Part shown: in pieces, positions 2,892 through 15,390 of the stretch
Numbering within the stretch: position 1 is the first letter of the stretch
How the letters are laid out: each line of letters starts with the position of its first letter
Assembly: GCA_041497995.1 (NCBI GenBank)
Contig: JBGQHM010000111.1
Location: 1-17,016, forward strand
Direction of reading: 5' to 3'
DNA from: Candidatus Binatia bacterium
GTDB taxonomy: Bacteria > Desulfobacterota > Binatia > HRBIN30
Length of the DNA stretch: 17,016 bases
Position numbers and translations under genes: made by a program
Notes under the pieces: generated by a model
The model's database searches: none
What the model was told of the DNA's origin: nothing
The model's input: the letters and a program-made list of their open reading frames with translations, nothing else

Positions 2892-4016
2892 TTAGTTCGA
2901 CAACTTGTACAGCTTCGCCGCATTGCCGGCACACATCTGTTGGCGCTCGGCGGTCGGCACGTCGCGGAACATGTCGTCGACGACGCGACGCGTCTCTGGC
3001 CAATCGCAGCCGTGGTGCGGATAGTCGGTCGACCACATCATGTTCTCGACGCCGATGACGTGGCGGTTCATCACGGCGTAGCGATCGATCATGAACGCGG
3101 CGCGCCAGTTCCGATGAAAGTAGAAGCTCGGCTCGTGCTTGAGCTTCACGGGGAGCCACCAGCGATTGCGCCACCAGCGATCGTCCATCTGCTCGAGGAT
3201 GTAGGGGATCCACCCGCACCCTGTTTCGACGGCGACCCAGATCAAATTGGGAAACCGATCATGCACACCGGAGCTGATGATCTCCGGCAGGTCAGTGATC
3301 ATGCTCGATGCACCGACGGTGGCCAACCCGGTGAGGTCGTCGCCGCGCACGCCCTTGGGCTTCGGCTTCAGGATCTGGCGCATCACCCGCACGTGAAAGT
3401 GCACCGGCACACATGCCGCCTGCACGGCATCCCAGAACGGATCGTCTTCGGGGCGGATCGCCGGGCCGGCGCTGGGCATGGTGTTGAGCCACACCCCGCG
3501 CATGCCCATCTTCAGGCAGCGTTCCATTTCCTTGATGCACGCATCGACGCCGAGCGCCGGCATCGCCGCCAACCCGATGAGCCGGTCCGGCGCTGCTTTC
3601 ACGAACTCCTGCGCCAGCCAGTTGTTGTAGGCCTGCACACCAGCGAGATGGAACTCGGGGTCAGGATCGGAAAAGAAGTGACTCATCATGCGCGCCGAAC
3701 CGAAGAGCACTTCCGCGTCGACGCCGTCGGTGTCCTGTTCTTCGAGACGCGGCGCCGCCTTGAAGTTCCCTTGATTCGCCGCCGCGAAGGTCACGCCGGT
3801 CCAGCGCACCTCTTCATGCTTGCGGCCCGCTGATGCGTAAATCCCGATCGGTGCCGGAGGCGTTTCGGGGGCAAACTGCCACGCTTCGCCACCTTCGCCG
3901 TCGGGCACGACTCGCGGTGCTTTCGCATGGAACTTCTTGGGCATGTACTCGGTCCACAGATGCGGCGGTTCGAGGATGTGCGAGTCCGCCGAGATGAGTC
4001 TGTATTCACGCGCCAT
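2892..4016 (-). CDS. Amidohydrolase-2 family metal-dependent hydrolase/decarboxylase (ACMSD/LigW-like)
   Basis: A 374-aa ORF. The N-terminus 'ISADSHILEPPHLWTEYMP' matches the Amidohydro_2 metal-binding HxH-type start. His/Asp residues typical of the TIM-barrel amidohydrolase fold follow. Confidence 0.7.
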   Translation of the reverse strand: MAREYRLISADSHILEPPHLWTEYMPKKFHAKAPRVVPDGEGGEAWQFAPETPPAPIGIYASAGRKHEEVRWTGVTFAAANQGNFKAAPRLEEQDTDGVDAEVLFGSARMMSHFFSDPDPEFHLAGVQAYNNWLAQEFVKAAPDRLIGLAAMPALGVDACIKEMERCLKMGMRGVWLNTMPSAGPAIRPEDDPFWDAVQAACVPVHFHVRVMRQILKPKPKGVRGDDLTGLATVGASSMITDLPEIISSGVHDRFPNLIWVAVETGCGWIPYILEQMDDRWWRNRWWLPVKLKHEPSFYFHRNWRAAFMIDRYAVMNRHVIGVENMMWSTDYPHHGCDWPETRRVVDDMFRDVPTAERQQMCAGNAAKLYKLSN

Positions 4017-4302: not shown

Positions 4303-6939
4303 ATGCTCCAGACGGCAATCAAGCTGGGTGACCCCCCCCAGGTGGCGAGCGTGCGACGGAAGGAGCTCACGCCGGAGCGCCAGCGATATCTGGACGAGTT
4401 GGTGTCCCGCTCGCGGCACGCGGCGGCGACGTTCTACCAATTCTCGCAGGAGCAGGTGGATCGTTGCGTGCGTGCGATGGTGCTCGCCGGACTGGAGGCG
4501 GCGCAGCAGTTGGCGGCGCTCGCGGTGACGGAGACGAAGCTCGGGGTGCTCGAAGACAAGGTGGTCAAGAACATGGTGGCGACCGAGTTCGTGTACCACT
4601 CGATCAAGGACGAGAAAACGGTCGGGGTCATCCGCGAGTGTCCGGAGCGCAACCTGAAAGAGATCGCCGAGCCGATCGGTGTCATCCTCGGTGTCACGCC
4701 GATCACCAACCCGACGTCGACCGTGCTGTTCAAGTCGTTGATGATGGCGAAGACGCGTAACGCGGTGGTGTTCTGCCCGCATCCGGGCGCGCAGCAGTGC
4801 TCGAACGAGGCGGCACGCGTGATGTACGAGGCCGCGCTCGCGGCGGGGGCACCAGAGGGGTTCATCGGCTGGGTCGATGACATCGCCATCAGCGACACGC
4901 AGTATCTGATGCGTCACCCGGATGTGGCGCTCATCGATGCCACCGGCGGGCCGGGCGTGGTGAAAGCGGCGTACAGCTCCGGCAAACCGGCGCTCGGCGT
5001 CGGCGCCGGCAACGTGCCCTGCTACATCCACCGCAGCGCCGACCTCAACATGGCCGTCGTCGACATCCTCACTTCGAAGACCTTCGACAACGGCACCATT
5101 TGCGCGTCGGAGCAGACGGTACTTGTGGACCGTTCGGTGTACGCGCGCGTCGTCGAGCTCTTCGCGTCGCTCGGTGCGCATGTCTGCAGCGCAGAGGAAG
5201 TCGCGCTGCTCGAGCGCACCGTGGTGGATGCCACCACCGGGACGATGCGCCCGACGGCCGTCGGGCAGAGCGCGCCGGCGATCGCGCACGCCATCGGCAT
5301 GCACGTCGCGCCGGGCACCAAGCTGCTGCTGGCGCCGCTCCAAGGCGTCGGACGCGCCCACCCGCTGTCGTGCGAGAAGCTGTTCCCGGTCCTCGGCATC
5401 CTCCCGGTCGATGGCGAGGACGAAGCCATCAACGCCGCGATGGACGTGCTCTACTTCGGCGGCGTCGGTCACACCGCGTCGATCTTTTGTGAAGACGACG
5501 CGGTCATCGATCGCTATGGTGTGGCGCTGAACGCCGGGCGCATCATCGTCAACTGCCCCTCGTCAGTCGGCGCTCTCGGCGGCGTCTACAACGACCTGCG
5601 GCCGACCTTCTCGTTCGGCTGCGGCACCGGCGGCGGCAACAGCACGATCGAGAACGTCAGCGTGCGCAACTACATGAACGTCAAGCAGCTGGCGAAGCGG
5701 ACGCCGGCGCACCAGTGGCTGCGCGTGCCGAACCAGATCTACTACAACTTGCACGCGCTGGAGAACCTGCGCGCCATCGACGCCGGGAACGTGTTGATCA
5801 TCACTAGCCAGGACTTGGACGACCTCGGCCTGGTTGATCAAGTCCGCTCGTATCTCCCGAACGGCTCGCACGCTCACGTCTTCAACGAGGTAGAGGTCGA
5901 GCCGACGTATCGCGTCATCGCGCGCGGCGTCGAGGCGATCCAGCACCATCATCCCGATCACCTCATCGCCGTAGGTGGTGGCTCGGTCATGGATGCAGCG
6001 AAGGCGATGCGCTTGTTCTACGCGCATCCCGACTTGGACTTTCGCAGCTTGGAGACCACCTTCCTCGATCCACGCAAGCGAGTCATTCAGTACCCGCGCC
6101 AGGCACGCGATCATCTCAGGCTCATTGCCATCCCCACGACCAGCGGCACCGGCTCGGAAGTGACGCCGTTCGCGGTGATCACCGACAGCGAGCGCGGCCG
6201 CAAGGTACCGTTGTATGACAATAGTCTCATTCCCGACGTCGCGATCATCGATCCGCAGCTGGTGCGTGGCCTGCCGGCAAGCGTCACCGCCGATACCGGA
6301 CTCGATGCACTGACGCACGCGTTGGAGGCCGGCGTATCGATATTTGCGTCGGAGTATACGGACGCGCTGGCGCTGCAAGCCGCGCGGGTGGTCTTCGAGT
6401 TTTTGCCGCGGGCGGTGCACGACGGCAGCGACATGGAGGCGCGCGCCAAGATGCACAACGCCGCCTGCATGGCAGGGATGGCGTTCGCCAACGCCTTCGT
6501 CGGCGTCAACCATGCGCTGGCGCACAGCCTCGGATCGGCGTTCAAGATTCCGCACGGACGTGCCAACGCCGTGCTGTTGCCGTACGTTGTGCGCTACAAC
6601 GCCGCGGTGCCGAGTAAGTTCATGCCCTTCCCCAACGTCAAAGCCTACGTCGCGCACCGCAAGTATGCACAGTTTGCCGAGGCCATGAGTTGGGGCGGCT
6701 CGAGCCCTGAGGAGAAGGTCGAGATCCTGATCGCCAAGATCTTCGCGCTGCTGGAGACGTGCAATCTGCCGACCTCGATCAAGGAGTTGGGCATCGCCGC
6801 GGAAGACTTCGAGCGCGCGATACCCGATATCATCCGCGCCGCTTTCGACGACATCAGCATCCGGTCGAATCCGCGTATGCCGTTGATCAAGGAGCTCGAG
6901 GACATTCTGCGGACCGCATATGCGGGCCGCCGCAGCTGA
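4303..6939 (+). CDS. adhE: Bifunctional acetaldehyde-CoA/alcohol dehydrogenase AdhE (N-terminal ALDH domain plus C-terminal Fe-ADH domain)
   Basis: An 878-aa ORF. GAGGAGGG sits 6 nt upstream of the ATG. It is collinear with E. coli AdhE: 'FSQEQVD', the catalytic-Cys motif '[11 protein letters not shown]', Fe-ADH '[11 protein letters not shown]' and His-rich metal motifs 'HALAHSLG'. Confidence 0.9.
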
Positions 6940-6954
6940 GGCGGGAGGCGTGAC

Positions 6955-7260
6955 ATGAATCATCTGAACGGAGAGAACCCGCGACTGCGGCTCGATCCGG
7001 ATGGGAGCGAAACGTTCCTCAAACACCTCAGGGCTGAGCTGCAGAAGCCGTCGGTGTGCGCGGTCACCGTCGATCTAGGACGCGTCGGGCGCGTCGACCC
7101 GTTGATTCTGCAGACGCTACGCACTGCCGGCGAGGAAGCGGACGTCACTCGCAAGGATCTCTACGTCGACGGCGCCGGACCCGTCGTGTACAAGTCCTTG
7201 CAGCTCGCCAAGCTCGGCTCATTCTTCAAGCGGCTGCATCACGCGACCGCGCCATGCTGA
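6955..7260 (+). CDS. Small STAS-domain-like protein (putative anti-sigma-factor-antagonist fold), translationally coupled to adhE
   Basis: The ATG at 6955 is preceded by GGGAGG (6941-6946). 'VTVDLGRVGRVDPLILQTL' and 'DLYVDGAGPVVYKSLQLAKLGSFF' loosely resemble the SpoIIAA/STAS core. This is a weak recall-based assignment. Confidence 0.35.
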   Translation: MNHLNGENPRLRLDPDGSETFLKHLRAELQKPSVCAVTVDLGRVGRVDPLILQTLRTAGEEADVTRKDLYVDGAGPVVYKSLQLAKLGSFFKRLHHATAPC

Positions 7261-7354: not shown

Positions 7355-8131
7355 ATGGTGACAAGCGATCTGGACGTCGGCTCTCAGTACCTGCACGCCA
7401 CAAAGGGCGGCGGTGTGTTGCGTGTCGTCATCGACCGACCCAAGCGCCGCAACGCGCTGACCATCGAGATGTACCACGGCCTGAAGAAGGCCACGGTGCT
7501 CGCCGAGCGCGACCCCGATGTGGATGTGCTCGTCGTCACGAGCACCGGCGAGTACTTTTGCGTCGGCGGCGAGATGGGCGGGCAACATGAAGGTGGGCAG
7601 GCGCTCGACCGCGAGACCGATCGCTTCGACCTGCTGCCGTTCGTCGAGCTCGAGCGCTGCCCGAAGATCGTCGTGATGGCGATCAACGGCATGTGTCAGG
7701 GCGGCGGGCTCAACATGACTTTGATGAGCGACATCTCCGTGGTTTCCGACCGCGCGACCTTCCGCGCGCCCGAGTTGCTGCGCGGCGTCGCCGACTGCTT
7801 TCTCGGTGCGCGGCTGGCCAGCCGTATCGGCATCGCGCGCGCCAAGTATCTGCTGTTCACGGCGCAGTACATCAGCGCGCAAGAGGCGCTGGCCATAGGC
7901 CTCATCTCACGCGTCGTCCCGCACGATCAACTCGAGACCGCGCTTGCTGAAACCATCGGCTGGATCCGCCAGACCGGCCCGCACGCGCGCACCGCGCTAA
8001 AGCGTGACATGAACCGCCAGCTACCGGTGATCGACTACCCGATGTTCGCCGAGTCGCTCGCGTCTGAAGAAGTACGCGAAGGCTTCACCGCCTTCGTCGA
8101 GAAGCGCCCACCGCGCTGGGCGAGCAAGTAG
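7355..8131 (+). CDS. Enoyl-CoA hydratase/isomerase (crotonase superfamily)
   Basis: A 258-aa ORF. 'RVVIDRPKRRNALT', 'YFCVGGEMGG' and 'GMCQGGGLNMTLMSD' are the crotonase oxyanion-hole signatures. ATG at 7355, TAG at 8129-8131. Confidence 0.8.
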   Translation: MVTSDLDVGSQYLHATKGGGVLRVVIDRPKRRNALTIEMYHGLKKATVLAERDPDVDVLVVTSTGEYFCVGGEMGGQHEGGQALDRETDRFDLLPFVELERCPKIVVMAINGMCQGGGLNMTLMSDISVVSDRATFRAPELLRGVADCFLGARLASRIGIARAKYLLFTAQYISAQEALAIGLISRVVPHDQLETALAETIGWIRQTGPHARTALKRDMNRQLPVIDYPMFAESLASEEVREGFTAFVEKRPPRWASK

Positions 8132-9339: not shown

Positions 9340-9368
9340 TTGACTTAACGAACGTTTGTTCGTAGCTA
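9340..9368 (+). promoter_or_regulatory. Sigma-70-like promoter (TTGACT-N17-TAGCTA) overlapped by a palindromic TetR-type operator ACGAAC-gttt-GTTCGT (9348-9363)
   Basis: Seen in sequence in the 128-bp divergent intergenic region between the secreted-protein gene and the TetR gene. Confidence 0.5.
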
Positions 9369-9388: not shown

Positions 9389-10069
9389 GTGGTCACGAGC
9401 GTACGCAAGGCCAAACGCGCGGCAACGCCGACGCCGGCGCTACCGACGCGCGAGGTGATTCTCGACACTGCCGAGCGGCTGTTCGCCATGCATGGGGTGG
9501 ACAGCGTGGCGCTGCGCGATCTGGCGCGCGAGATGAACCTGACGGCACCGAGTTTGTACAACCACTTCCCCAGCAAGCAGGCACTGTACGACGCGGTACT
9601 GGACCGCGGCTTGCGGCCGATCCTCGAAGCGATTGCCGCGGCGTGGCATCCCGGCGCACTGCGCGCCGAACAGATGCGCGCCACGGTCGATACGCTGACG
9701 ACTCACCTCGCCACCCACCCGCATCTCGCCCGCCTGCTGCAGCGCGCGATGCTCGACCAGAGCGAGAGCGTGCAGAAACTCATGAGTCGCTGGCTCACGC
9801 CGCTGTACGTCGAGGGCATCGCTGTGATTCGCGAGACCGCCGGCGACGCCGGCTGGGAGGCAGACGAGGTGCCGCATCTCACCCTCGGATTGTTTGGGAT
9901 GGTCTTCGCGTATTTTACCAACGCCGCTGCGCTGCAATCGTTTGTTGCCGGCAGCGGCGATCCCATGTCACCGCAAGCGCTGGCGATCCAGCGCCGCGTC
10001 ATCGAAAAGGCGATCTACCGCTTGCTCGGGCCGCTGCCGCGCGGCGCCGAACGCAGAAAGAAGGCATGA
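9389..10069 (+). CDS. TetR/AcrR family transcriptional regulator
   Basis: HTH segment 'EVILDTAERLFAMHGVDSVALRDLAREMNLTAPSLYNHFPSKQALY'. The start is uncertain: GTG at 9389 is preferred, because the TTG at 9356 listed by the track lies inside the operator and promoter. Stop is TGA at 10067-10069. Confidence 0.75.
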   Translation: MVTSVRKAKRAATPTPALPTREVILDTAERLFAMHGVDSVALRDLAREMNLTAPSLYNHFPSKQALYDAVLDRGLRPILEAIAAAWHPGALRAEQMRATVDTLTTHLATHPHLARLLQRAMLDQSESVQKLMSRWLTPLYVEGIAVIRETAGDAGWEADEVPHLTLGLFGMVFAYFTNAAALQSFVAGSGDPMSPQALAIQRRVIEKAIYRLLGPLPRGAERRKKA

Positions 10070-10073
10070 GAGC

Positions 10074-11195
10074 ATGGCTGCAGCTGAACAGGGAAAGATC
10101 ACCGACGAAGGCATCGCTAAGCTGCGCGAACGCGTCGGCAAAGGCTTCGAAGGCCGGCGCCCGTGGCGCACTGAAGTCACGCGCGACGCCATTTATCACC
10201 TCGCGTTGGCGATCGGCGACCTCAACCCGCTGTACCTCGACGAGGAGTACGCCAAGAAGACGCGCTGGGGGACGCTGCTGGCGCCGCCGATCATCGTGCA
10301 GACGATGGACACGCTGCGCGCCGTCGGCCACAGCGGTCTGCCCGAAGGCCTGCCGGGCGTGCACTCCATCTGGACCGGCTCGCTCTATGAGTGGGTACGT
10401 CCGCCGCAGCTCGGTGACCGCATTCGCGCCGACTCCTACATGAAGGAGATCCGCGAGAAGGACAGCACCTTCGGCGGCGGCCGCGCGCTCTATCAAACCT
10501 ACGAGGCCAAGTACTACGACCAGAACGGTACCTACATGGGCGTCCGCAACGACACCTGGATTCGCATCGAGCGCGCCAAGACGGCGGAGAAAAAGAAATA
10601 CGGCGACATCAAGTTGGCCGAATGGAAGCCGGAAGACATCACGGGCTTCATGGAAGAGTACCGCACCGAACGACGTACGACCGCACGCTATTGGAACGAC
10701 GTGAAAGTGGGCGAGTCGATGAACCGCATCATCAAGGGCCCGCTGACACCGACCGCCGAGATCGCCTTCGAGTCATACTTCGGCATCTATTTGGTCGGCA
10801 ACAAAGTCGCCGCAAACCTGTACGCCAAGCACCCGGCGCTGATGATTCCCAACGAGCAAGGCATCCCCGAGCCACCGCAACGTGTGCATTGGGACAACGC
10901 CTTCACGCAACGTTTGCTCGGCTTGCCAGGTGCGTATGATCTCGGTCCTGAGCGGTGCTCGTGGCTCATCCAGGGGATGACCGACTGGATCGGCGACAAC
11001 GGCCGGCTGACCAAGCTCGAAGCCAAGTACCTGAAGTTCAACTACATGGGTGACGTCACCTGGGTGCAGGGCAAGGTGACCGACAAGTTCGAACAGGATG
11101 GTAAAGGCTTCGTACGCTGCGCGCTCGAATGCGTCAACCATCGCGACGAAGTTACGGCGGCGGCAACCGCCGAGGCGGAGTTGCCACACCGCTGA
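10074..11195 (+). CDS. Double hot-dog MaoC-family (R)-specific enoyl-CoA hydratase/dehydratase (MaoC_dehydrat_N plus MaoC_dehydratase)
   Basis: ATG at 10074 lies 4 nt after the TetR stop, giving a 373-aa product. The track start at 9894 is an in-frame read-through of the TetR 3' end. Two hot-dog halves are visible, one of them at 'HRDEVTAAATAEAELPHR'. Confidence 0.7.
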   Translation: MAAAEQGKITDEGIAKLRERVGKGFEGRRPWRTEVTRDAIYHLALAIGDLNPLYLDEEYAKKTRWGTLLAPPIIVQTMDTLRAVGHSGLPEGLPGVHSIWTGSLYEWVRPPQLGDRIRADSYMKEIREKDSTFGGGRALYQTYEAKYYDQNGTYMGVRNDTWIRIERAKTAEKKKYGDIKLAEWKPEDITGFMEEYRTERRTTARYWNDVKVGESMNRIIKGPLTPTAEIAFESYFGIYLVGNKVAANLYAKHPALMIPNEQGIPEPPQRVHWDNAFTQRLLGLPGAYDLGPERCSWLIQGMTDWIGDNGRLTKLEAKYLKFNYMGDVTWVQGKVTDKFEQDGKGFVRCALECVNHRDEVTAAATAEAELPHR

Positions 11196-11211
11196 TCCGA
11201 CGGAGAGCATC

Positions 11212-12447
11212 ATGAAACTGGCAGACGTCGATCTGTGCAACCTCGACCAGTTCGAGACGGGTGTCCCGCACCATGTCTTCAAACTGCTGCGTGCCGAATC
11301 GCCGGTGCACCGCCATGCGGAGCCCAATGGCGGCCCCGGGTTCTGGGTGGTCACGAAATATCACGACCTGATGAACGTTTCGAAGAACCCGGGCACGTTC
11401 TCGTCCTACAAGGGCGGCACCAATATCTTCGACGTCGAGCCGGAGCAGCTCAGCCAAACGCGGATGATCATGCTCAACATGGATCCACCGGCGCATAGCA
11501 AGTATCGCAAGCTGGTGAGCCAAGGCTTCGTACCGCGCATCGTCTCGCGGCTGGAAGAGCACGTCCGCGAGATGACGCGGCACATCGTCGACAGCATCGC
11601 CGCACGCGGCGAGTGCGACTTCGTCACCGAGGTCGCCGCCGAGCTGCCGCTGCAGGTGATCGCCGAGTTTCTCGGCGTCCCGCTCGCGGATCGCCACAAG
11701 GTCTTCGAATGGAGCAACCGCCTCATCGGCTTCGACGATCCGGAATTCAACGGCAACGCCAAGGAAGAGGGGATGCGCGCCGCCACCGAGATGTACATGT
11801 ATGCGAACCAGCTCGCCCTCGAGCGGCGCGATCATCCGCGCGACGACCTGGTCAGCGTGTTGATGCGTGGCGAGGTTGATGGCGAGCGCTTGTCGGAGAT
11901 GGAGTTCGATTCGTTCTTTCTGCTGCTCGCGGTGGCGGGGAACGAGACGACGCGCAACCTGATTTCCGGGGGCATGCTGGCGCTCATCGAACACCCCGAG
12001 CAGCGCGCGCGGCTGGTCGCCGACATGTCGCTGCTGCCCACCGCGGTCGAAGAGATGCTGCGCTGGGTGTCGCCGGTGATGCACTTCCGCCGCACCGCAA
12101 CTCGTGACACGGAGCTTCGTGGCCAGAAAATCGGCGAGGGCGAAAAGGTGGTGATCTTCTATCCGTCGGTGAACCGCGACGAGGAGATCTTTCCCGACGG
12201 TGATCAGTTCAACGTCAGCCGCAGCCCGAACGAGCATCTCGCCTTCGGTATCGGCGAACACTTCTGTATCGGGTCAAACCTTGCACGGCTTGAGATCCGA
12301 CTGATGTTCCAGGAATTGCTGACCCGCCTGCCGGACATTGAGCTGGCAGGGCCGGTACACCGCCTGCGGTCGAACTTCATCAACGGCATCAAGCGCATGC
12401 CCGTACGCTTCACCCCTGAACGCGCACACCACGCGGCACACGCGTGA
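11212..12447 (+). CDS. Cytochrome P450, CYP125/CYP142-like (steroid/alkyl side-chain terminal hydroxylase family)
   Basis: ATG at 11212 with GGAGAG 5 nt upstream. Heme-thiolate motif 'FGIGEHFCIGSNLARLE', the EXXR motif 'EEMLRW' and 'AGNETTRN' in the I-helix. The N-terminus 'MKLADVDLCNLDQFETGVPHHVF' resembles mycobacterial CYP142/CYP125. Confidence 0.85.
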   Translation: MKLADVDLCNLDQFETGVPHHVFKLLRAESPVHRHAEPNGGPGFWVVTKYHDLMNVSKNPGTFSSYKGGTNIFDVEPEQLSQTRMIMLNMDPPAHSKYRKLVSQGFVPRIVSRLEEHVREMTRHIVDSIAARGECDFVTEVAAELPLQVIAEFLGVPLADRHKVFEWSNRLIGFDDPEFNGNAKEEGMRAATEMYMYANQLALERRDHPRDDLVSVLMRGEVDGERLSEMEFDSFFLLLAVAGNETTRNLISGGMLALIEHPEQRARLVADMSLLPTAVEEMLRWVSPVMHFRRTATRDTELRGQKIGEGEKVVIFYPSVNRDEEIFPDGDQFNVSRSPNEHLAFGIGEHFCIGSNLARLEIRLMFQELLTRLPDIELAGPVHRLRSNFINGIKRMPVRFTPERAHHAAHA

Positions 12448-12458
12448 AGTGCGGCGAC

Positions 12459-13688
12459 ATGAACCTCGACGACATCGACCTGTTGAACGCCGACAACTTC
12501 GTTGCGGGCGTCCCGCACGAAGCCTTCCGTACGCTGCGCCAGCAGGCGCCGGTGTTCTGGCACAAGGAAGCCGACGGCCCTGGATTCTGGGCGGTGACGA
12601 AGTATCAGGACGTCGCCACGGTATCGCGCGACCCGCGCACCTACTCCTCGGCCAAGAAAGGGGTGTTCGTCTTCGATCCGGTGCCCGAAGATCTCCAGCG
12701 TATGCAGCTGATGATGCTCAACATGGACCCGCCGAAGCACACCAAGCTGCGGGCTCTAGTGAACAAGGGCTTCACGCCGCGTATGGTCGCGCAGCTCGAA
12801 TCGCGTCTGCGCGCCAGAACCAACGAGATCATCGACGATGTCGCCGCGAGGGGACAGTGCGACTTTGTGAGCGACATCGCCGCCGAGCTGCCGCTGCAAG
12901 CCATTGCCGAGCTGCTGGGCATCCCGCTCTCCGACCGGCATTTGGTGTTCAACTGGACCAACCGCCTGATCGGTTTCGACGACCCGGATCAGGGGTCGTG
13001 GGAGGAAGGCAAGCTCGCCGCTGCGGAGATGTACATGTACGCCAACCAGCTCGCCGCCGAGCGCCGCGACCATCCGGGTGACGACCTCGTCAGCGTGCTG
13101 ATGAACGCCGAGGTCGAAGGCGAACGGCTGACGGAGCTGGAGTTCGATCTGTTCTTCGTCCTGCTCGCCGTGGCCGGCAACGAGACGACGCGCAACCTGA
13201 TCTCCGGCGGCATGCTGGCGTTGATCGAGCATCCGGAGGAGCGCGCGCGGCTCGCGGCCAATCCCGCGTTGATGCCCACCGCCGTCGAGGAGATGCTGCG
13301 CTGGGTGTCGGCGGTCATCGAGTTCCGCCGCACCGCGACCCGCGATACCGAGCTACGCGGGCAGAAGGTCCGGGCGGGTGACAAGGTCATCATCTACTAC
13401 ATTTCGGCCAACCGCGACGAAGACGTGTTCCCCGACGCCGACCGCTTCGATGTCGGTCGTACGCCCAACGATCATCTGGCATTCGGTATCGGCGAGCATT
13501 TCTGCCTCGGATCCAATCTGGCGCGGCTGGAGATTCGCATCATGTTCGAGGAGCTGCTGCGTCGCTTGCCGGATATCGAGTTGGCCGGTGCCGTCGACCG
13601 CTTGCGTTCCAGCCTGATCAACGGCATCAAGCGTATGCCGGTGGTGTTTACTCCTGAGCGCCAGCGCCACGCCGTTGGCGGAGGATGA
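12459..13688 (+). CDS. Cytochrome P450, tandem paralog of the preceding gene (CYP125/CYP142-like)
   Basis: ATG at 12459 gives 'MNLDDIDLLNADNF', which aligns residue-for-residue with the upstream P450 N-terminus. The GTG at 12444 listed by the track overlaps the previous stop. Motifs 'FGIGEHFCLGSNLARLE', 'EEMLRW' and 'AGNETTRN'. Identical nucleotide stretches are shared, for example 11941-11966 and 13177-13202. Confidence 0.85.
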   Translation: MNLDDIDLLNADNFVAGVPHEAFRTLRQQAPVFWHKEADGPGFWAVTKYQDVATVSRDPRTYSSAKKGVFVFDPVPEDLQRMQLMMLNMDPPKHTKLRALVNKGFTPRMVAQLESRLRARTNEIIDDVAARGQCDFVSDIAAELPLQAIAELLGIPLSDRHLVFNWTNRLIGFDDPDQGSWEEGKLAAAEMYMYANQLAAERRDHPGDDLVSVLMNAEVEGERLTELEFDLFFVLLAVAGNETTRNLISGGMLALIEHPEERARLAANPALMPTAVEEMLRWVSAVIEFRRTATRDTELRGQKVRAGDKVIIYYISANRDEDVFPDADRFDVGRTPNDHLAFGIGEHFCLGSNLARLEIRIMFEELLRRLPDIELAGAVDRLRSSLINGIKRMPVVFTPERQRHAVGGG

Positions 13689-13695
13689 GGCTGCG

Positions 13696-13890
13696 ATGAA
13701 GATTCGCATCGACTACGACTTGTGTGAAGGCAACGCCGTGTGCATGAAGGTCTGCCCCGAAGTCTTCGAGGTAGGTGACGACGATCGCGCGCGGTTACGA
13801 GTTAAGGACCCGGACGAGAACCTGCGCGCGAAAGTCGAGGCAGCAGTGCGCCGCTGTCCGCGGCAAGCGCTGGCCATCGAAGCCGCCTGA
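13696..13890 (+). CDS. Small single-cluster ferredoxin (3Fe-4S/4Fe-4S FdxD-type, P450 redox-partner class)
   Basis: ATG at 13696 with GGAGGA about 9 nt upstream. 'MKIRIDYDLCEGNAVCMKVCPEVFEVGDDD...RRCPRQA' is 64 aa with four Cys in the pattern C-x5-C-x3-CP...CP. It sits 7 nt after the second P450. Confidence 0.8.
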   Translation: MKIRIDYDLCEGNAVCMKVCPEVFEVGDDDRARLRVKDPDENLRAKVEAAVRRCPRQALAIEAA

Positions 13891-13976: not shown

Positions 13977-14339
13977 ATGGCAAGCGACGCGTATCACGAA
14001 CCGCTGGACCTGATCTCGGAGCGTACCCGCAACCTGCACCGCGCCATCGTCAGCCTGATGGAGGAGCTGGAAGCCATCGACTGGTATCAGCAGCGTGCCG
14101 AAGCCTGCTCGGATCCGCAGCTCAAAGCCGTTCTGCTGCACAACAAGAACGAAGAGATCGAGCACGCCATGATGGTGCTCGAATGGATCCGGCGGAACGA
14201 CGAGCACTTCAATGACCCCATGAAGACGTACCTGTTCACCGAAGCGCCGATCACCGGCATCGAGAAGGCCGCCGAGGGCGAGGCTTCCGCCGCGGCGCCG
14301 AACGCGACGCTCGGTATCGGTGCCTTGAAAGGGAGGTGA
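13977..14339 (+). CDS. Encapsulated ferritin-like protein (EncFtn/Flp cargo) with C-terminal encapsulin targeting peptide
   Basis: ATG at 13977 with GGGAG 6 nt upstream. 'HEPLDLISERTRNLHRAIVSLMEELEAIDWYQQR...NKNEEIEHAMMVLEWIRRN...TYLFTEAPITG' is collinear with EncFtn, including the ExxH ferroxidase motif. A flexible linker precedes the C-terminal 'ATLGIGALKGR', which matches the family-1 cargo-loading peptide (GxGxLKG). Confidence 0.85.
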   Translation: MASDAYHEPLDLISERTRNLHRAIVSLMEELEAIDWYQQRAEACSDPQLKAVLLHNKNEEIEHAMMVLEWIRRNDEHFNDPMKTYLFTEAPITGIEKAAEGEASAAAPNATLGIGALKGR

Positions 14340-14342
14340 GCC

Positions 14343-15152
14343 GTGGACCTGCTGAAGCGGAAGCTGGCGCCGATCACGCCTGAGGCGTGGAAACAGATTG
14401 ACGAAGAGGCGAAGCGTGTCCTGCAGCTCACCCTCGCGGGCCGCAAGCTCGTCGACGTCGACGGGCCACACGGCTGGCAACACGCTGCGGTGAACACCGG
14501 CCATTTGAGCATAAAGTCGGATGCCGTTCTCGGCGTCCCGTGGGGGATTCGGGAGGTCGTGCCGTTGATTGAGCTGCGGGTACCCTTCGAGCTGTCGATT
14601 ATGGAGCTCGACAACGCGGCGCGCGGCGCGACGTTGGACTTGGAGCCTGTCGTCGCTGCGGCGGAGCGCGTCGCCCGCGCCGAGGATCTCACCATCTTCA
14701 CCGGTTTCAAGCCGGCAGGCATCGACGGCATCATCGCCCAGAGCCCGCACCCTGCGATCACCATCCCCGACGACTTCGCGAACTACCCACAGGTCGTCGT
14801 CGAGGCGGTGGAAACGTTGCGGCGCGCCGGCATCAACGGGCCCTACGCGATCGCCCTCGGACCGGACTGCTACGCCGGGCTCTCGCAGGCAGCGGAAGAC
14901 GGCTACCCGATCCGCGACCGGGTCCAGCGCTTCCTCGACGGACCGCTGGTGTGGGCACCGCAGGTTGACGGTGCCGTCGTGCTGTCCGTACGCGGCGGTG
15001 ATTTCACGCTCACGATCGGCCAGGACCTGTCGATCGGCTACGCCTCGCACAGCCACGAGAAGGTGGAGCTGTATCTGACGGAGTCGTTCGCCTTCCGTGT
15101 GCACGAGCACGGCGCCGCGGTGCACCTCAAGCCGAAACGCGGCAAGAAGTGA
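14343..15152 (+). CDS. Family-1 encapsulin nanocompartment shell protein (HK97 fold, linocin M18-like)
   Basis: GTG at 14343, 3 nt after the EncFtn stop, with GGGAGG 6 nt upstream. A 269-aa ORF. 'MDLLKRKLAPITPEAWKQIDEEAKRVL...LAGRKLVDVDGPHGW...VVPLIELRVPF...GPYAIALGPDCY...DGYPIRDRVQRFLDGPLVWAP...GGDFTLTIGQDLSIGYASH' is collinear with T. maritima/M. xanthus-type encapsulins. Confidence 0.9.
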   Translation: MDLLKRKLAPITPEAWKQIDEEAKRVLQLTLAGRKLVDVDGPHGWQHAAVNTGHLSIKSDAVLGVPWGIREVVPLIELRVPFELSIMELDNAARGATLDLEPVVAAAERVARAEDLTIFTGFKPAGIDGIIAQSPHPAITIPDDFANYPQVVVEAVETLRRAGINGPYAIALGPDCYAGLSQAAEDGYPIRDRVQRFLDGPLVWAPQVDGAVVLSVRGGDFTLTIGQDLSIGYASHSHEKVELYLTESFAFRVHEHGAAVHLKPKRGKK

Positions 15153-15195: not shown

Positions 15196-15390
15196 ATGAA
15201 GGTTCGGGTTGACGACGATCTCTGCGAGGGAAACGCCTTGTGTATGAAAGTGTGTCCGGAAGTGTTCGAGGTCAGAGACGACGACCGGGCGCATCTGCTC
15301 ATCCTGTCCCCCGGTGAGGAACTGCGAGCGAAAGTCGAGGAGGCTGTGCGGAGGTGCCCGCGGCAGGCAATCTCGATTGTGAATGAGTGA
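15196..15390 (+). CDS. Second small ferredoxin, paralog of the gene at 13696 (FdxD-type)
   Basis: ATG at 15196, 44 nt after the shell gene, with AAGGA upstream. 'MKVRVDDDLCEGNALCMKVCPEVFEVRDDD...RRCPRQAISIVNE' has the same Cys pattern. The track start at 15097 is an upstream read-through. Confidence 0.8.
   Translation: MKVRVDDDLCEGNALCMKVCPEVFEVRDDDRAHLLILSPGEELRAKVEEAVRRCPRQAISIVNE

Follow-up and report, generated by a model that had tools for sequence, protein, structure and literature searches.

The question raised by this locus is what a pair of neighboring cytochrome P450 genes does in an uncultured Candidatus Binatia bacterium, and whether the two copies arose by a recent duplication. 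The window, i.e., the whole stretch of DNA analyzed, is a 17-kb contig with a G+C content of 64%, in which genes for a TetR-family repressor (9389-10069, + strand), a double hot-dog protein of 373 amino acids (aa) (10074-11195, +), two P450s named here P450a (11212-12447, +; 411 aa) and P450b (12459-13688, +; 409 aa), and ferredoxin 1 (13696-13890, +; 64 aa) follow one another. The intergenic gaps measure 4, 16, 11, and 7 bp, and on this layout the five genes almost certainly form a single transcript. We hold with moderate confidence that this is a TetR-controlled operon in which two divergent P450s and a ferredoxin would oxidize the end of an isoprenoid-type chain, likeliest that of a sterol; the locus is a new example of an already known kind and not a case of recent gene duplication. 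An earlier sequence-only reading of the same DNA had described two P450 genes lying head-to-tail and alignable from end to end, which was borne out for full-length genes, and had noted a TetR gene and, 3 kb upstream, a crotonase gene, both of which were recovered by profile search (TetR directly 5' of the hot-dog gene; crotonase at 7355-8131, +). Relatives of the window genes were found nearly all in metagenome-assembled genomes (MAGs) labeled Candidatus Binatia or "Deltaproteobacteria".

Both P450s belong to PF00067 (E = 1.9e-29 and 1.9e-28) and carry the heme-thiolate loop FGIGEHFC(I/L)G, the I-helix motif AGNETT, and the ExxR segment EEMLRW. Among PDB entries, both scored highest against CYP125MRCA (8vxi; 552-554 bits), followed by CYP124A1 (344-350 bits), CYP125A1 (336-339 bits), CYP126 and CYP268 (320-332 bits), and CYP142 (271-292 bits), with identities of 61% to CYP125MRCA, 46-47% to CYP124A1, and 44% to CYP125A1. 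CYP125MRCA is a reconstructed ancestor, 54% identical to CYP125A1, that hydroxylates cholesterol, phytosterols, and vitamin D3, the sterols being attacked at the chain terminus (PMC12100521). Identity to CYP125 exceeds the family threshold of 40%, yet it does so equally for CYP124A1, so that this threshold is non-discriminating. The safe statement, judged from these scores, is an assignment of P450a and P450b to the CYP124/CYP125 clan and not to CYP142; hence, the former label "CYP125/CYP142-like" stands as regards the clan and fails as regards CYP142 (271-292 bits, vs. 336-350 bits for CYP124/125).

The P450 tree, a bootstrapped neighbor-joining analysis of 137 sequences with weakly supported deep nodes, included only three named references and held no CYP142, CYP126, or CYP268 sequences as outgroups; in it, the window family stood beside CYP125MRCA (66%), with CYP124 and CYP125A1 on the opposite side. 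A divergent P450 from locus L016 (7882-9066, -), tried as a route to CYP142 outgroups, was not CYP142-like. When compared with CYP125A1, the steroid C26-monooxygenase of Mycobacterium tuberculosis, and with CYP125MRCA (8vxi/8vxg), the window P450s share the clan, the conserved motifs, and similar I-helix and beta4 substrate regions. Unlike CYP125A1, they occur in a Binatia host instead of an actinobacterium, and a single operon encodes both divergent copies along with a ferredoxin of their own; this operon lacks the partner genes of the igr type. CYP124A1 (2wm4), the second-best PDB family, is an omega-hydroxylase, and the same chemistry, omega-hydroxylation of a methyl-branched terminus, would be expected of the window P450s; unlike in the CYP124A1 context, the closest informative relatives of their clade lie in steroid-ring operons.

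In fact, these relatives carry most of the evidence on substrate. The P450s P0051 (on an 8-Mb contig) and P0097 (in a Polyangiaceae MAG), 65-69% identical to the window P450s, are each encoded by the first gene of a P450-KshA-HsaA-HsaC-HsaD-HsaE-HsaG-HsaF operon, and both loci also contain two KstD-like flavoproteins, a KshB-like reductase, an acyl-CoA ligase, an SCP2 protein, and, likewise, a divergent EchA19-like crotonase. In NCBIfam searches HsaA scored 449.7 bits, just under the cutoff of 450, and 3-ketosteroid dehydrogenase was the top family for both flavoproteins; the predicted products of these operons are those of the canonical aerobic 9,10-seco steroid pathway. Compact aerobic steroid-ring operons headed by a CYP125-clan P450 were observed in the Myxococcota-type MAGs of loci L069-L072, with HsaC and HsaD fused into a single protein of 593-596 aa in L071 and L072. 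KshA, HsaA/C/D/E/F/G, KstD, and KshB were sought in 74 loci and occurred only in L069-L072, and, within the library searched, a literature search combining Binatia with steroid and CYP125 with Myxococcota returned nothing on degradation.

Furthermore, P450a agrees with the steroid-operon P450s at 82-100% of positions in three substrate regions, namely the I-helix, beta1-4, and beta4. In the clade of P450b, two residues through which CYP125MRCA contacts sterol, M243 and F400, are both replaced by Leu (PMC12100521), and these replacements suggest that its specificity has shifted. Other members of the P450 family adjoin DUF35/thiolase-like pairs, crotonase, acyl-CoA ligase, ferredoxin, and DUF1329 genes, and some adjoin simply TetR, ferredoxin, and DUF1329, contexts that would fit terminal oxidation followed by CoA activation and branched-chain beta-oxidation. 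The role proposed initially, terminal oxidation of a sterol or branched lipid, thus appears reasonable in view of the 65-69% identical homologs within canonical steroid operons, and a sterol or isoprenoid substrate of the window operon is plausible.

As for the age of the P450 pair, it had been taken for a fairly recent tandem duplication, of about 75% identity and still capable of recombining. We measured 68% identity for protein and 71% for DNA, and the 26-mer quoted as common to both genes is exact only in P450b (13176-13201), with 25 of 26 positions matching in P450a (11938-11963). A recent origin would account for two genes that are adjacent, co-oriented, and collinear, for exact shared runs of 14-23 nucleotides (nt), and for a synonymous-codon identity that locally rises to 0.73 (codons 240-290). 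However, the Nei-Gojobori estimate of synonymous divergence (dS) between the copies is about 1.06, i.e., synonymous sites are saturated, identity at third codon positions is 54%, and the same codon is used at 57% of the residues that the copies have in common, vs. 54% expected by chance from their own codon usage. The longest in-register identical run, of merely 23 nt, is short for efficient homologous recombination; it encodes the I-helix stretch AGNETTRNLI, and the remaining long runs likewise fall on conserved motifs. Given the dS, codon, and third-position figures, the shared runs reflect protein conservation together with GC-rich codon bias, and not recency.

Moreover, the two copies are no closer to each other (68%) than either is to P450s of Myxococcota MAGs (65-69%), and each has its own ortholog in L001, L002, and L006, with 81-89% protein identity. 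In the tree, P450a clusters with the single P450 of related loci and P450b, apart from it, with P0054 and P0064 (94% bootstrap), whose genomic surroundings are different. With synonymous sites saturated and the copies in separate clades with their own orthologs in other MAGs, recent duplication is refuted by the data, and we regard it as very improbable. The ratio of nonsynonymous to synonymous divergence (dN/dS) was about 0.10 for P450a and for P450b, each against its own L001 ortholog, and therefore both copies have been kept by purifying selection.

A different history is suggested by loci L005 and L026, which also hold P450a orthologs and in which a hot-dog gene, a single P450 of the P450a type, and a ferredoxin gene occur without P450b. 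A remnant of P450b was sought in the 115-nt gap between P450 and ferredoxin genes in L005 and was not found, so L005 offers no evidence of copy loss. The simplest history would have hot-dog, P450a, and ferredoxin as the ancestral order, with P450b, from a different subclade, now placed between P450a and ferredoxin; that is, a P450a-ferredoxin cassette would have joined the TetR-hot-dog operon first, and the long-diverged paralog P450b would have been set alongside it later. An ancient tandem duplication is conceivable, whereas a recent one can be excluded.

Ferredoxin 1, a single-cluster protein (PF13459 and PF13370), displays the motif C9-E-G-N12-A-V-C15...C52-P and aligns with the ferredoxins of Pyrococcus furiosus and Thermotoga maritima and with M. 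tuberculosis FdxE. The CxxNxxC(x)nCP class comprises P450-associated [3Fe-4S] ferredoxins, including M. marinum Fdx11 and M. tuberculosis Rv3503c/FdxD (PMC6237146). In this context, the designation "FdxD-type" appears acceptable at the level of motif class, considering the CxxNxxC...CP motif, the length of 64 aa, and the position beside a P450 gene; the likeness to FdxD and Fdx11 (about 62-81 aa, P450-adjacent) is one of motif only. The motif is present in 7 of 8 related ferredoxins, the second ferredoxin of L002 keeping CxxNxxC and differing at the C-terminus, and ferredoxins of the same type lie 3' of the P450 gene in L005, L026, L073, L075, and L076 and 5' of it in L074. Ferredoxin 2 (15196-15390, +), a paralog 75% identical to ferredoxin 1, may be a second redox partner. 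Unlike in the FdxD/Fdx11 class, the two paralogs of the window flank an encapsulin operon. This complete family-1 operon (13977-15152), located directly after the P450 operon and 5' of ferredoxin 2, encodes a ferritin-like cargo protein (TIGR04535, 151 bits) and a shell protein (NF041155, 309 bits); it is also found in L005, without a second ferredoxin, while in L002 two ferredoxin genes are adjacent without encapsulin.

With regard to control of the operon, the TetR protein (PF00440, E = 6.8e-15), whose open reading frame opens at 9356 and whose probable start at 9389 was inferred from orthologs, is 90% identical to the TetR of L001 and 65% identical to that of L073, a locus of the order TetR-P450-ferredoxin-DUF1329 without a hot-dog gene. 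Its identification as the cholesterol catabolism repressor KstR was rejected (37.5 bits against an NCBIfam cutoff of 280), and the score for PsrA was also under the NCBIfam cutoff. Directly 5' of the TetR gene lies TTGACTTAACGAACGTTTGTTCGTA (9340-9364, +), which occurs once in the window and combines a promoter-like TTGAC box with an overlapping inverted repeat, CGAAC-N4-GTTCG (9349-9362); of 35 upstream regions of orthologous TetR genes, 27 contain the core 10-mer AACGAACGTT, and a palindromic variant of the operator precedes the TetR gene of L073. At the start of the operon, this segment probably serves as promoter and, overlapping it, as TetR operator, an arrangement that would make the operon TetR-autoregulated. 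The operator of KstR is TnnAACnnGTTnnA, from which the repeat in the window differs. Scans for sigma-70 promoters and terminators gave nothing beyond shuffle expectation.

The double hot-dog protein (PF13452, 60 bits) belongs to the MaoC/hydratase-2 superfamily, and its description as a MaoC-type double hot-dog is supported at the level of the predicted fold. In fact, the AlphaFold (AF2) model (pLDDT 83, pTM 0.87) gave as best Foldseek matches 4v12, 5i7n, Rv0216 (2bi0), itaconyl- and mesaconyl-CoA hydratases, and hydratase 2 of MFE-2, at 10-18% identity; the Foldseek probability was 1.00 to 4v12, 5i7n, the itaconyl- and mesaconyl-CoA hydratases, and MFE-2 hydratase 2. The mycobacterial proteins MSMEG_6754 (4v12), 5i7n, and Rv0216 would share the same fused double hot-dog (TM-scores 0.54-0.70 to the model), from which the window protein differs by an identity of 13-18%, about 40 additional residues, and family-specific invariant motifs. 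The canonical catalytic motif of hydratase 2 and PhaJ is G-D-x-N-P-[LIV]-H. The N-terminal domain reads G48-D-L-N-P-L-Y54, keeping Asp49 and replacing His by Tyr54, and the C-terminal domain reads P267-P-Q-R-V-H272, keeping His272 with Pro at the Asp position. Among 67 homologs, Asp49, His272, and Asp274 never vary and at least 90% have Tyr54, a pattern that hints at a catalytic pair split across the two domains. The match to PF01575 was 17.4 bits, under the cutoff of 27.

The family is strongly conserved, these 67 sequences being 68-92% identical, and its members come almost exclusively from Binatia-type MAGs. The hot-dog homolog records L006, L048, and L049 are labeled as Candidatus Margulisiibacteriota (94%) and as Enterobacteriaceae and Klebsiella pneumoniae MAGs (61%); since nearly all other relatives are from Binatia, these labels look like binning or labeling errors. 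An orthologous TetR precedes the hot-dog gene in 24 of 46 species-representative loci, and a crotonase ortholog (at least 60% identity) accompanies it in 17 of the 46. Across 62 loci its neighbors include family-III CoA transferases, acyl-CoA and PaaK-like ligases, crotonases, thiolases, and DUF1329 proteins, and these CoA-related neighbors, together with the fold matches, support a CoA thioester as the probable substrate. L073 suggests that the hot-dog protein and the P450s are functionally linked, as a TetR 65% identical to that of the window and the same type of operator there accompany a P450 in the absence of a hot-dog gene.

The sequence-only reading had likened the locus to actinobacterial cholesterol clusters combining CYP125 with MaoC-like hydratases. 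The igr operon of M. tuberculosis has the order cyp125-fadE28-fadE29-chsH1-chsH2-ltp2, and the shared logic is that of a terminal-oxidizing P450 beside a MaoC-fold hydratase. Unlike the ChsH1/ChsH2 heteromer, the window protein is one fused 373-aa chain without DUF35, and, unlike in the igr operon, FadE and Ltp2 genes are absent from the window. The hot-dog protein was rejected as a ChsH homolog (its match to ChsH1/ChsH2 spans about 50 residues at E = 0.012), the Asp/His motif is missing, and a P450 gene stands directly 3' of the hot-dog gene in only 2 of 54 species-representative loci; the parallel with CYP125 plus ChsH is accordingly not supported.

Two further genes upstream of the operon bear on its possible substrate. 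The crotonase-fold enoyl-CoA hydratase introduced above (PF00378, E = 9e-48) had EchA19 as its best NCBIfam match, at 157.6 bits and under the cutoff of 400; it was rejected as an ortholog of the EchA19-like crotonases of steroid operons, to which it is 32-33% identical. The Amidohydro_2 protein (2892-4016, -) resembles the amidohydrolase-related dinuclear oxygenases PtmU3 and DitZ, its closest PDB matches (1.5e-35 and 8.6e-34, with decarboxylases at 1e-15 or weaker), although the similarity is distant (121-127 bits). Such oxygenases are characterized by an N-terminal D-x-H and a C-terminal D-x-P-H-x-D/E motif (PMC13154177). The window protein has the first as D-S-H and the second as D-Y-P-H-H-G; thus, it has the D-x-H and D-x-P-H residues in common with PtmU3 and DitZ and, unlike them, ends the second motif in Gly in place of Asp/Glu. 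In other Binatia loci its gene is directly divergent from the crotonase-TetR-hot-dog cluster. The likeness to PtmU3 and DitZ, combined with this conserved synteny, keeps a terpenoid-acid substrate open and is the chief support for a substrate other than a steroid.

Putting these elements together, both P450s would oxidize a terminal methyl of an isoprenoid-type chain, most likely C26/C27 of a sterol side chain, to the alcohol and then to the acid, with the adjacent [3Fe-4S]-type ferredoxin(s) and a reductase from an unlinked gene supplying the electrons, and P450a and P450b might differ in substrate or stereochemical preference. The acid would be activated by a CoA ligase encoded elsewhere (in related loci a CoA ligase gene lies next to the P450 gene), and the resulting acyl-CoA would be handled by a conserved Binatia set formed by the double hot-dog hydratase, the crotonase, and possibly the diiron-oxygenase-like neighbor. 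TetR would leave its operator upon binding a lipid or acyl-CoA of the pathway.

Several observations weigh against this scheme. CYP124, which hydroxylates methyl-branched lipids, and CYP125A1 are about equally close to the P450s, and in the neighbor-joining tree the P450s are not nested inside CYP125; the top match to CYP125MRCA is partly a consensus effect that inflates the apparent affinity to CYP125, because the L016 P450, only 42% identical to P450b, also matches CYP125MRCA first (301 bits). Steroid-ring genes (KshA, Hsa, KstD) were not found in the window or in the 10 kb around the 62 Binatia hot-dog loci, and a search for KshA homologs returned named matches from Myxococcota and Proteobacteria only, most matches being nameless. 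The window encodes neither a CoA ligase, an acyl-CoA dehydrogenase, nor a ferredoxin reductase, the canonical Asp/His motif of hydratases is missing from the hot-dog protein, whose gene seldom has a P450 gene as its direct neighbor, and the oxygenase-like neighbor resembles hydroxylases of diterpenoids, a different substrate class. In a possible but less probable explanation, the same operon acts on a non-steroid substrate: the P450s would attack a methyl group on a terpenoid, either methyl-branched or cyclic, such as a phytanate-like lipid, a hopanoid, or a diterpenoid resin acid, and the PtmU3/DitZ-like oxygenase, the crotonase, and the hot-dog protein would carry out beta-hydroxylation or hydration of the acyl-CoA. 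Identity to CYP124A1 at least equal to that with CYP125A1, the lack of steroid-ring genes near the Binatia loci examined, and conservation of the hot-dog/TetR/crotonase core without P450s agree with it, as does a conserved neighbor closest to PtmU3 and DitZ, which are diterpenoid diiron hydroxylases (PMC13154177). Yet that neighbor is without the final acidic residue of D-x-P-H-x-D/E and is separated from the cluster in the window by AdhE and STAS genes; moreover, the nearest homologs with informative context sit in steroid-ring operons, and P450a retains the substrate-region residues of their P450s.

A sterol-type oxidation by the whole operon also has to be weighed against an improbable alternative, namely that the P450-ferredoxin cassette is functionally unrelated to the hot-dog gene and simply landed in a pre-existing TetR-hot-dog operon, itself serving another pathway. 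P450 genes are indeed rare at hot-dog loci, being found within 10 kb in 4 of 62 in addition to the low count directly 3' (2 of 54), and P450-ferredoxin pairs also occur alone or in other contexts. On the other hand, the arrangement has been kept in the window, L001, L002, L005, L006, and L026, whose orthologs differ by 11-26% in protein, the genes are separated by 4-16 bp, TetR and the operator type are common to the TetR-P450-ferredoxin locus, and DUF1329 and acyl-CoA ligase genes recur beside both kinds of locus. Oxidation of an isoprenoid-type, likeliest sterol, chain end by an integrated operon is the reading that we retain.

Regarding the remainder of the window, the stretch between the oxygenase-like gene and the crotonase (4303-7260) holds two genes, one encoding an 878-aa bifunctional AdhE (NF010378, 1144 bits) and the other a STAS-domain protein; both are present there only in the window and in L001, while in other Binatia the oxygenase-like gene and the crotonase are directly divergent. 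Between crotonase and TetR, the interval is about 1.2 kb in the window vs. about 150 bp in the syntenic L001; the segment 8085-9332 (-), with a DUF559 endonuclease-like gene and a gene for a 232-aa secreted protein without Pfam match, looks like an insertion, since L001 has just those 150 bp. At the 3' end, a right-handed beta-helix protein with a signal peptide (PF13229; 15383-17014) overlaps the stop codon of ferredoxin 2 by a few bases and runs off the contig; in L001, L002, L005, and L006 its gene likewise follows the P450/ferredoxin block. At the 5' end, a truncated alpha-L-rhamnosidase-like gene (52-2073) is followed by an open reading frame for a cysteine-rich, repetitive, secreted or lipoprotein-like product of no assigned family (about 2150-2810).

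In brief, the earlier observation was real yet overstated: its guess on family and function is broadly reasonable and is made firmer by the homologs in steroid operons, and the result is an annotation-level refinement and no surprise. The parts most worth pursuing are the atypical hot-dog family and the oxygenase-like neighbor. Thousands of homologs of the window P450 family were detected, and a P450 family known chiefly through the cholesterol pathway of M. tuberculosis occurs widely among uncultured lineages of soil and sediment, such as Binatia and Myxococcota, which bears on the view that CYP125 originated within Actinomycetota (PMC12100521). The window P450s are candidates for altered specificity toward sterols or terpenoids, P450b being changed at two sterol-contact positions, and, should the product of the P450s prove to be the substrate of the hot-dog and oxygenase-like proteins, these would constitute an alternative module for side-chain processing. 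More speculatively, and in our opinion rather unlikely, Binatia may process sterol or cyclic-terpenoid acids aerobically by a route not yet described, built from CYP125-clan P450s, a diiron oxygenase, a crotonase, and an atypical hot-dog protein. If so, the oxygenase/crotonase/hot-dog module of Binatia would replace the actinobacterial ChsE/ChsH/Ltp2 machinery, and the hot-dog protein would represent a new enzyme family with its Asp and His split between domains. To our knowledge, Binatia is a phylum without a cultured member, and its bacteria would then be unrecognized degraders of sterols or terpenoids.

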